Assembly (NCBI GenBank): GCA_038526075.1 | Contig: JBCBHC010000001.1 | Span: forward strand, 1-25,418 | Source: Bacteroidota bacterium | GTDB taxonomy: Bacteria > Bacteroidota > Bacteroidia > Cytophagales > Amoebophilaceae | Length of the DNA stretch: 25,418 nt | Reading direction: 5' to 3' | In this document: in pieces, positions 11,133 to 14,100 of the stretch | How the letters are laid out: every line of letters starts with the position of its first letter | How positions within the stretch are numbered: the stretch's first letter is position 1 | Notes under the pieces: model-generated | The model's input: only the letters and a program-made list of their open reading frames with translations | Told to the model about the DNA's origin: nothing | Databases searched by the model: none | Translations under genes and position numbers: made by a program

Positions 11133-11281
11133 GTACTCTCTAAGCGCCCTGTGCCTCCTTGCAAAAGGAGGGGCTGACCGCGGGCCGGGACGGCAAGCGG
11201 GCGCATAGTCACATTCTCGGCGACACGTCACTTTTGGACGTCATGGCTAACACAAAAGCGATGCCATGTGCGCCGGTTATG

Positions 11282-11289
11282 TATATTTG
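11282..11289 (+). promoter_or_regulatory. Candidate -7 box (TATATTTG) for murG-murC
   Basis: Exact TAnnTTTG match ending 27 nt before ATG 11317. Confidence 0.45.
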
Positions 11290-11316
11290 TCAGCCCTAGC
11301 ACATCACACACTGTTT

Positions 11317-12708
11317 ATGAGAATTATTATCAGCGGAGGCGGCACGGGCGGACATATATACCCTGCGCTTACTATTGCAGATGCACTCAAGCGTCAAGAT
11401 ACTACCAATGAAATCTTGTTTGTGGGCGCTAATGGCAAAGCAGAGATGGAGCAGGTCCCCAAGGCAGGGTATGCTATTGAGGGATTGCCCATCAGGGGCT
11501 TGCAGAAAAACCGCATATGGGAGAATTTGGGGCTATTATTCAGGCTAGTGGCCAGCTTACGGAAGTCGAAAAGTATCCTCAAGCAATTCAAGCCCGATGT
11601 AGTAATAGGGACGGGCGGCTACACTAGCCTACCTATCCTTTACAAAGCAGCTAAGGCAGGGATCCCTACCCTTATTCAAGAACAGAATGCCCATGCCGGT
11701 CTAACCAATGAAATCTTGTTTGTGGGCGCTAATGGCAAAGCAGAGATGGAGCAGGTCCCCAAGGCAGGGTATGCTATTGAGGGATTGCCCATCAGGGGCT
11801 TGCAGAAAAACCGCATATGGGAGAATTTGGGGCTATTATTCAGGCTAGTGGCCAGCTTACGGAAGTCGAAAAGTATCCTCAAGCAATTCAAGCCCGATGT
11901 AGTAATAGGGACGGGCGGCTACACTAGCCTACCTATCCTTTACAAAGCAGCTAAGGCAGGGATCCCTACCCTTATTCAAGAACAGAATGCCCATGCCGGT
12001 CTAACCAATGTAGTCCTAGGCAGGATAGTGGACAAAGTATGCGTGGCTTACACCGACATGGAAAAATATTTCCCTGTTAAGAAGTTGGTCATTACCGGTA
12101 ACCCCGTGAGAGACTCTATTCGGCAGCCACCAGCGGCGCAATCAGTAGCCCTCCAGCATTTTGGCTTAGAGCCAGGTAAGTGTGTACTCATACTAGGCGG
12201 TAGCCTGGGGGCTCAGAACATTAATAAATGTACCCTGAAGATGTTAGACGCGCTGGTGGAAGAGCGGATTCAGGTACTATGGTCTACAGGACCAGGATAT
12301 TATGAGCATGTGCAAGCGCAACTTACTCCTAAGCAAAGAAAGTGGGTGCGAATTTATCCATTCATAGAAGAGATGGCGCTCGCCTATGCAGCTGCCGACA
12401 TCGTGGTCTCGCGTGCAGGGGCGTTAGCTATCTCAGAGCTATGTGCTGCACAGAAAGCGAATATTTTTATTCCGTCCCCCAATGTAACAGCTGATCACCA
12501 GAGCAAGAATGTCAAACCACTGATTCAGCAAGGTGCCGCACTACTGGTAGAGGATGTTGAAGCACCGTATATACTGGACCAAGTGCTCCTCAAGTTAGTC
12601 AGCGACAAGGATAAGCAAGCCAAGCTTCGTAGAAACATGCGTCTATTCGATCGGCCCAATGCAGTAGCACATATTGTGCAGGAGATTGTCCGGCTCACCA
12701 AAGCGTAG
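11317..12708 (+). CDS. murG: MurG glycosyltransferase carrying an in-frame 100-aa internal duplication
   Basis: GGGTGGHIYP, GTGGY (twice), QEQNA (twice), TGNPVR, GGSLGA, SRAGA. It is 463 aa, or 363 aa (ordinary MurG size) once one repeat copy is removed. Confidence 0.93.
   Translation: MRIIISGGGTGGHIYPALTIADALKRQDTTNEILFVGANGKAEMEQVPKAGYAIEGLPIRGLQKNRIWENLGLLFRLVASLRKSKSILKQFKPDVVIGTGGYTSLPILYKAAKAGIPTLIQEQNAHAGLTNEILFVGANGKAEMEQVPKAGYAIEGLPIRGLQKNRIWENLGLLFRLVASLRKSKSILKQFKPDVVIGTGGYTSLPILYKAAKAGIPTLIQEQNAHAGLTNVVLGRIVDKVCVAYTDMEKYFPVKKLVITGNPVRDSIRQPPAAQSVALQHFGLEPGKCVLILGGSLGAQNINKCTLKMLDALVEERIQVLWSTGPGYYEHVQAQLTPKQRKWVRIYPFIEEMALAYAAADIVVSRAGALAISELCAAQKANIFIPSPNVTADHQSKNVKPLIQQGAALLVEDVEAPYILDQVLLKLVSDKDKQAKLRRNMRLFDRPNAVAHIVQEIVRLTKA
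11404..12010 (+). repeat. Exact 300-bp tandem duplication (11404-11703 and 11704-12003) with a 7-bp ACCAATG microhomology
   Basis: 11404-11710 is identical to 11704-12010 line by line. ACCAATG occurs at 11404, 11704 and 12004. Confidence 0.98.
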
Positions 12709-12714
12709 TATCCC

Positions 12715-14100
12715 ATGCTACAGTGCGAGTACATTTATCTTATAGGAGTAGGCGGCATTGGCATGAGCAGTATGGCCCAATGGTATCGTGCATTGGGAAA
12801 ACATGTCTTTGGTTATGATAGAACTCCCACCGCAATCACTGATTACTTAGCTACGAAAGGCATCAAGATTGTTTTCAATACTGACGAGCAGCACATCCCC
12901 CAAGAAATCATCAAAAACAAAGCGGAGAGCCTGATTATATATACTCCTGCCATTCCTGTAGAGCATCCACTATTACGATATTTCAATCGCCATGGCTACC
13001 GCGTTTGTAAACGCATAGATGTACTCGAACGCATTACACAACGTTACAAGACAGTAGCGGTGGCTGGTACGCACGGAAAGACGATTACTACTGCGCTCGT
13101 ATCACACATCTTGCATCAAGCAAACTGCCACATGGTGGCCTTCGTAGGCGGGGTTGTGAAGGGCTATGATGCTAACCTGCTCATGCATGGAAGCGACCAT
13201 GAAGATGTCATGTTAGTGATAGAAGCAGATGAGTACGATCGCTTCTTCTTACGGCTACACGCCGACATATGCGTCGTTACTTCTATGGATGCTGACCACT
13301 TAAATATCTATGGGGATGTACAACAGTATCAGGAGGCATTCAGACAGTTTGTTGCGTCAACTCCTCCCTATGGATACGCTGTAGTTCACGAAGCAGTAGC
13401 CCGTAGAATAGGTATCCATCATATGCCTGGGTCCCGAGCCAAGTACTATGCGCTAGAAGGCAAAGAAATACGTGCAGAGAATGTCTGCGTTGACCAAGGG
13501 CTTGTCTGCTTTGACTATGTTAGCAATGCCGTACGCATCGACGGCATTCAGTTGCCTTTGGTGGGCACCTACAACGTAGAGAACACACTCGCGGCCATTA
13601 CGACGTGTCATCGATTGGGCCTTGCGTCGGGAATTATCCGCGAAGGCATTCGTACATTCCAGGGAGTAGAGCGAAGGTTTGAATTCATCTTTCGTGACCA
13701 GCACACCGTCTTCATCAGCGACTATGCACACCATCCCGTAGAGATTACAGCTGCTTTGCGTGCTGCACGCGCCCTGTACCCGCATAAGCGCATCACCGCT
13801 GTATTTCAGCCCCATCTGTACAGCCGTACCCGAGATTTTGCCCGCGAGTTTGCGCAAAGCTTGGACTTAGCAGACCAGGTCTGCTTACTAGCCATCTATC
13901 CCGCCCGAGAGGAACCGATAGCTGGTGTAACTTCCGAATTGATTATGGATTACATGCAGGTTGCCGACAAAGCATTGTGTGCTTCGACAGAAGTCATCAA
14001 CCAGCTTACCCAGTGGGGTAAGCCCGAAGTATTGATGCTGATGGGTGCAGGTGATATTAATAAGCTGATAGATCCGTTGAAGGCATTCTTGAGCACTTAA
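12715..14100 (+). CDS. murC: UDP-N-acetylmuramate--L-alanine ligase
   Basis: IGVGGIGMS, GYD, AVAGTHGKT, EADEYD, DADHL, RRFE, DYAHHP, FQPHLYSRTRDF, MGAGDI. Confidence 0.96.
   Translation: MLQCEYIYLIGVGGIGMSSMAQWYRALGKHVFGYDRTPTAITDYLATKGIKIVFNTDEQHIPQEIIKNKAESLIIYTPAIPVEHPLLRYFNRHGYRVCKRIDVLERITQRYKTVAVAGTHGKTITTALVSHILHQANCHMVAFVGGVVKGYDANLLMHGSDHEDVMLVIEADEYDRFFLRLHADICVVTSMDADHLNIYGDVQQYQEAFRQFVASTPPYGYAVVHEAVARRIGIHHMPGSRAKYYALEGKEIRAENVCVDQGLVCFDYVSNAVRIDGIQLPLVGTYNVENTLAAITTCHRLGLASGIIREGIRTFQGVERRFEFIFRDQHTVFISDYAHHPVEITAALRAARALYPHKRITAVFQPHLYSRTRDFAREFAQSLDLADQVCLLAIYPAREEPIAGVTSELIMDYMQVADKALCASTEVINQLTQWGKPEVLMLMGAGDINKLIDPLKAFLST

Follow-up and report, generated by a model that had tools for sequence, protein, structure and literature searches.

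Tandem duplications with short junctions, which form across microhomology and independently of RecA, arise spontaneously in bacteria and provide one precedent for an exact repeat inside a bacterial gene. Another comes from the laboratory, where multiple displacement amplification (MDA) generates chimeric junctions at a frequency of about one per 10–22 kb of product, 85% of them inverted and 15% direct (Lasken & Stockwell 2007, PMC1855051). According to the same study, the joined ends share 2–21 nt of complementarity in more than 70% of cases – a proportion that exceeds 90% where the segments lie within 10 kb of each other – and within that distance 11 direct chimeras were counted against 337 inverted ones (PMC1855051). 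A 2023 review (PMC9984789) places the peak of overlap length at 7 nt, with most values at 5–8 nt, and the peak of chimeric distance at 250–300 nt; distances of 80 and 280 nt are preferred. All of these values were measured on inverted chimeras.

The locus discussed here is a murG gene in the window, that is, the whole 25,418-nt stretch of DNA analysed, which constitutes the whole of the largest contig in a 706-kb draft assembly (124 contigs, rated 70% complete). This murG contains a 300-nt unit twice, in tandem. The repeat is confirmed as truly present in the contig; as a feature of the organism, the duplication is most likely not real. We think it probable that it is a chimera of in vitro amplification that was written into the contig by the assembler and has no counterpart in the living genome.

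The gene product is recognised as MurG by the two GT28 domains that Pfam finds in it: the N-terminal domain (PF03033), matched in two stretches with 181.8 bits against a gathering cut-off of 26.2, and the C-terminal domain (PF04101), with 127.9 bits against a cut-off of 22. We take MurG to be the GT28-family UDP-GlcNAc:lipid I N-acetylglucosaminyltransferase. Because its relatives all begin at a conserved MRIIISGGG in the alignment, the start is placed at the ATG at 11317, so that murG as written in the contig occupies 11317–12708 on the plus strand, stop included, and encodes 463 aa, or 363 aa after deletion of one copy of the repeat. The longer open reading frame (11266–12708) would add 17 residues that are absent in the relatives. 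Upstream, on the opposite strand, the neighbouring gene is of the TsaD family (PF00814).

Two repeat finders, Tandem Repeats Finder among them, place the copies at 11404–11703 and 11704–12003 (both on the plus strand, in frame within murG), with 100% identity and no indels. The 7-mer ACCAATG at the start of each copy occurs a third time at 12004–12010, which sets the end of the array at 12010; on separate extension, the exact self-match at period 300 comes to 307 nt. The microhomology is exactly 7 nt, the bases that flank the 7-mers differing on both sides. The first-pass annotation had described just such an exact, in-frame 300-bp tandem duplication, bounded by ACCAATG at 11404, 11704 and 12004, and on both counts it is borne out. 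In the protein, the repeated segment corresponds to MurG residues 30–129, from TNEILFVGA to QEQNAHAGL – presumably β2 to β5 of the N-terminal Rossmann domain – and the motifs GTGGY and QEQNA are present in both copies; GGGTGGH, GTGGY and QEQN are invariant columns in a 47-sequence MurG alignment. Here, too, the earlier reading (about 100 aa of the N-terminal Rossmann domain including both motifs, with 363 aa left once one copy is removed) agrees with the residues found, and 363 aa is also the length of MurG in the nearest relative.

An exact repeat of 300 nt cannot arise by chance, and no other internal direct repeat in the 706-kb assembly is exact over more than 77 nt. In the single-copy gene of 1092 nt, ACCAATG stands at positions 88 and 388, and the 7-mer now at 12004–12010 (plus strand) is the downstream member of this direct repeat pair, 300 nt apart. 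Pairs of identical 7-mers are not rare in the gene (39 observed, 36 expected), and the murG site is therefore no special hotspot; what is informative is not the existence of such a pair but the fact that the junction falls exactly on one. This sole novel junction (11697–11716, plus strand), at which the end of the unit is joined to its start across the ACCAATG at 11704–11710, is spanned by k-mers found nowhere in the single-copy gene, and must therefore come from reads.

The draft bears the marks of its assembly: many contig ends overlap by exactly 77 nt, which indicates a de Bruijn graph with k=77, and contigs are as short as 510 nt. A purely computational origin of the repeat – contigs or edges overlapping by 300 nt and concatenated by a scaffolder, a gap-closer or a manual edit, or else a repeat mis-resolved with no junction read behind it – has to be considered: the joining of overlapping pieces is a known source of exact duplications, and one run of 10 N in the assembly shows that some scaffolding was done. 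Near the murG site, however, neither N runs nor other seams occur, and the repeat measures 300 nt against a graph overlap of 77 nt at seams. Pasting, moreover, needs no microhomology, and the third 7-mer would then be present by chance with a probability of only about 4^-7 = 6e-5. We regard such an origin as highly improbable. A repeat of 7 nt is too short to confuse a graph with k=77, or even one with k=21, so that the junction k-mers must stem from real DNA molecules. It thus appears that a polymerase switched template between two copies of ACCAATG, the question being whether it did so in the cell or in the tube. The same 7 nt would serve for switching in vivo and in vitro, and the first-pass annotation was right to say that the microhomology fits slippage without proving it.

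On this question, the rest of the draft is instructive. Fifteen contig termini, or sixteen if C80, whose arm starts 3 nt from the end, is included, are exact foldbacks (C4, C8, C14, C15, C30, C38, C41, C46, C50, C57, C67, C78, C80, C90, C108 and C114). Each has an outer arm of 33–76 nt, a length that never exceeds k, and this arm is matched exactly, in reverse complement, 11–346 nt inward; the spacers have a median of about 70 nt and cluster at 50–85 nt, and the intervening sequence is not itself a palindrome. Away from the termini, only two comparable inverted repeats occur. As no chromosome ends in fifteen hairpins, these termini are foldback chimeras, each a graph path that turns onto its own complementary strand. 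A natural family of terminal palindromes was also considered and rejected, since the arms match only themselves and are exact up to k.

Three further termini are direct self-loops. In C19 (L016), the period is 242, positions 1–77 being an exact copy of 243–319, at the start of gpmI (iPGM); in C76 (L015), it is 302, positions 1–69 being an exact copy of 303–371, inside mutL and out of frame; and in C52, it is 1445. C19 also has a 47-nt exact inverted repeat at 97–143/164–210, and in C76 the direct loop is followed by a small inverted repeat at about 67–117, which makes its 5' end a compound chimera; the N-terminal ATPase part of mutL is missing from this contig. C11 and C123 also end in direct repeats, but these are natural imperfect tandem repeats or microsatellites and were not counted; a split Pfam match on RodA (C67), taken up as a candidate hidden internal duplication, showed none in a self-BLAST.

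In all, besides the one in murG, the 706 kb of the draft contain some 18 chimeric junctions in this size class, and these – the 15–16 foldbacks and three direct loops – are mostly inverted, as in MDA. In the graph, the murG repeat takes the form seen in C19 and C76, a direct loop some 240–300 nt long, and differs from them in having both true flanks present, so that the assembler could apparently traverse the loop and go on. From this we infer that the library had been amplified and that the junction in murG is of one kind with the others in the draft. The values of the junction itself agree with such an origin and match those of the textbook: its overlap of 7 nt lies within the MDA range of 2–21 nt and at the reported mode, and the joined points, 300 nt (and hence less than 10 kb) apart, lie at the 250–300-nt peak, both modes being those of inverted chimeras. 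Next to the preferred distances of 80 and 280 nt stand the foldback spacers of the draft, clustered at 50–85 nt, and its direct loops, clustered at 242–302 nt. No independent occurrence of the repeat was found in the collections searched. Some considerations weigh on the other side: a repeat in frame is a one-in-three outcome for an artefact and a requirement for a viable in vivo allele of an essential gene; replication slippage in the cell would use the same 7-nt microhomology; and among MDA chimeras of nearby segments, the direct type is far outnumbered by the inverted.

How a template switch in the tube would lead to the deposited sequence can be reconstructed in outline. The setting would be phi29-type MDA or a comparable low-input library step, in which a growing 3' end, having just copied the terminal ACCAATG of the 300-nt segment, would be displaced, re-anneal on the same strand to the identical 7-mer 300 nt upstream, and be extended from there, giving molecules in which the end of the unit is joined to its start. 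In a de Bruijn graph with k=77, the k-mers of this junction would form a 300-nt self-loop: to the edges for entry, unit and exit, one extra edge would be added, leading from the end of the unit back to its start. The path through a single copy has no k-mer of its own, so an assembler could take the junction edge only with one passage through the loop, and the outcome would be exactly two perfect copies. An assembler handling loops in this way writes two copies both when the genome has one and the library contains chimeric reads, and when the genome has two, and the contig alone therefore cannot decide between them. The position of the junction inside the longest contig, unlike that of the others, indicates that its k-mers were well supported relative to local coverage, which counts against a chimera. 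Single-cell data are described in the exSPAnder paper as holding many chimeric reads, with support thresholds set low.

Among relatives, the gene is seen in single-copy form only. The best 119 of 8000 scored MurG homologues are all 337–384 aa long, none of these 119 contains the 100-residue repeat, and the 463-aa protein of the window forms a singleton cluster in the protein collection. The nearest relative, P0003 (a Logan assembly), has a single-copy MurG of exactly 363 aa, with 80% amino acid identity, between the same neighbours and with the same 6-nt spacing between murG and murC. With one copy removed, the murG of the window aligns to that of P0003 without gaps, both genes being 1092 nt long, at 75.5% nucleotide identity; P0003 has ACCAATG at neither position. 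The repeat is likewise absent from the 17 genomes of the family and 16 of the order that have murG, in which alignments span about 350–362 residues, that is, a single copy. In the collections reached, JGI metagenome contigs included, no sequence of the same species was found (45 pattern matches, none from a relative). Exact-protein look-ups with MurC and with the 463-aa MurG likewise yielded no entry in the collections reached.

A genuine and very young tandem duplication in the symbiont, fixed or polymorphic, would have to be reconciled with these observations. Such a duplication, formed by RecA-independent replication slippage or by template switching between the ACCAATG copies, would give a 463-aa MurG with one copy of residues 30–129 in the native domain and the other looped out, and it would be easily reversible by recombination between the 300-nt copies. 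The 7-nt direct repeats exactly at its boundaries are what this origin calls for; the length of the repeat is a multiple of three, so that the reading frame of the downstream domain is preserved, a point that shifts the odds about threefold in its favour; and the junction is internal to the longest contig and not terminal. The absence of any difference over 300 nt, on the other hand, requires an extremely recent event, no relative carries the repeat, and the roughly 18 chimeric junctions in the draft represent a far more frequent source of such a sequence than spontaneous duplication at one given locus. Overall, a real duplication appears unlikely.

What such an allele would mean for the cell depends on its pathway. 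Genomes of the family measure 0.6–2.7 Mb and those of the order 1.6–7.3 Mb, one of the latter alone being smaller than 2.6 Mb, and the window holds eukaryote-like genes, namely a UCH-type ubiquitin protease and a NACHT–HEAT protein; these sizes and genes are consistent with a reduced-genome symbiont. Strong drift in symbionts of this kind would help a duplicated allele to persist. The window nevertheless retains an intact murC (12715–14100, plus strand), 6 nt downstream of murG as in the nearest relative, and an intact murB near its end (24343–25368, plus strand); elsewhere in the genome, four further genes of the Mur-ligase family, mraY, two PBPs and FtsW/RodA have open frames. No second murG that might cover for a broken one was found in the contigs of this genome (70% complete), and a real duplication would thus hit the only murG of a genome with an otherwise intact pathway. 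With its pathway genes intact, the lineage thus continues to produce lipid II and should have a use for murG.

The first-pass annotation had called MurG essential, and the retention of the rest of the pathway agrees with this, subject to one caveat from the family. With a close MurG as query, murG was not found in seven of its 24 genomes (G002, G008, G009, G010, G017, G021 and G022; 87–96% complete), which could mean either that some reduced lineages have lost peptidoglycan synthesis or simply that the query has its limits. Insofar as peptidoglycan genes can be lost, this counts in favour of a real duplication.

Several other features of the window and its surroundings may be recorded. A PD-(D/E)XK-family transposase-like gene (PF12784; 14283–15017, minus strand) lies between murC and yidC, and the murG–murC pair stands apart from the usual cell-wall and division cluster, mraY being on C18 and ftsW/rodA on C73 and C67. 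At 87–169, close to the contig's 5' end, the 12-nt unit ACAAGGTATGCA is repeated in tandem (6.9 copies, 91% matches), upstream of a gene of the phosphoglucomutase/phosphomannomutase family (329–1711, minus strand). The NACHT–HEAT gene (19987–24195; 1402 aa) contains, in its HEAT-repeat part, an imperfect tandem repeat of 111 nt (37 aa) at 22969–23174, with 77% matches; this is natural repeat structure and not an artefact.

Whether a 463-aa MurG could fold has been considered with an AlphaFold2 model based on the 47-sequence alignment (mean pLDDT 84.6). Copy 1 is modelled in the native N-terminal domain, with pLDDT mostly above 90, and the C-terminal remainder, after residue 231, as a confident MurG fold. 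Copy 2 comes out as mostly disordered or of low confidence: its first 37 or so residues (129–165) fall below a pLDDT of 50, and residues 166–229 reach about 75. In topological terms a tandem repeat always permits a native fold, here with the extra half-domain looped out, which speaks for a real duplication, and nothing in the model suggests a stable new structure; an exposed half-Rossmann segment of 100 residues would probably destabilise the enzyme, which speaks against it. The model is best read as illustrative and does not discriminate between the hypotheses.

More specific still is the idea that living cells carry the in-frame duplication of a 100-residue partial domain, either as a first step in the loss of lipid II synthesis, a loss that some relatives may have undergone, or as a reversible on/off or attenuating switch that works through gain and loss of the 300-nt copy. 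We consider this improbable, more so than a young duplication as such. Any real duplication would offer a modest example of a partial-domain duplication arising in an essential symbiont enzyme under drift, and would even so be an ordinary mutational event.

For an in vitro template switch, the reading we prefer, the significance lies mainly in quality control. The deposited contig would mis-state murG, and gene callers will derive from it a protein of 463–480 aa. The roughly 18 chimeric contig ends call for caution in any analysis of this draft that draws on contig ends, small repeats or apparent gene disruptions: the last 50–450 nt or so of the foldback contigs are chimeric, and need to be trimmed before annotation. 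The first-pass annotation had framed the repeat as either a very recent slippage duplication or an assembly or chimera artefact. The framing holds, and the evidence now moves clearly towards a chimera, most likely in the form of a switch made in vitro at the level of DNA and not of a pure mis-join.

The locus may also be set beside the systems to which it is closest. Relative to MurG of other Cytophagales and of reduced-genome symbionts, it is an ordinary, ungapped 363-aa protein with the same gene spacing once one copy is removed, and differs by 100 extra residues, the repeated segment 30–129. With the k-length seam duplications of de Bruijn assemblers, in which 77-nt overlaps are left untrimmed, it has in common an exact tandem repeat in a k=77 assembly, and differs in its length of 300 instead of 77 nt and in its 7-nt microhomology. 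The short-junction tandem duplications of bacteria are similar in their head-to-tail arrangement, exact copies, boundaries at short direct repeats and expected reversibility by homologous recombination, whereas the murG case lies inside a single, normally essential gene and repeats half of a Rossmann domain. Compared with direct chimeras of MDA – a class that is rare among nearby segments, whose modes of overlap and distance are borrowed from inverted chimeras, and whose relevance here presupposes an amplification deduced from the draft – the murG junction differs in that a full second copy stands in the interior of a contig rather than at a dead end; it shares with them a short-overlap junction, joined points 300 nt apart on the same strand, and an excess of foldbacks in the same data set.
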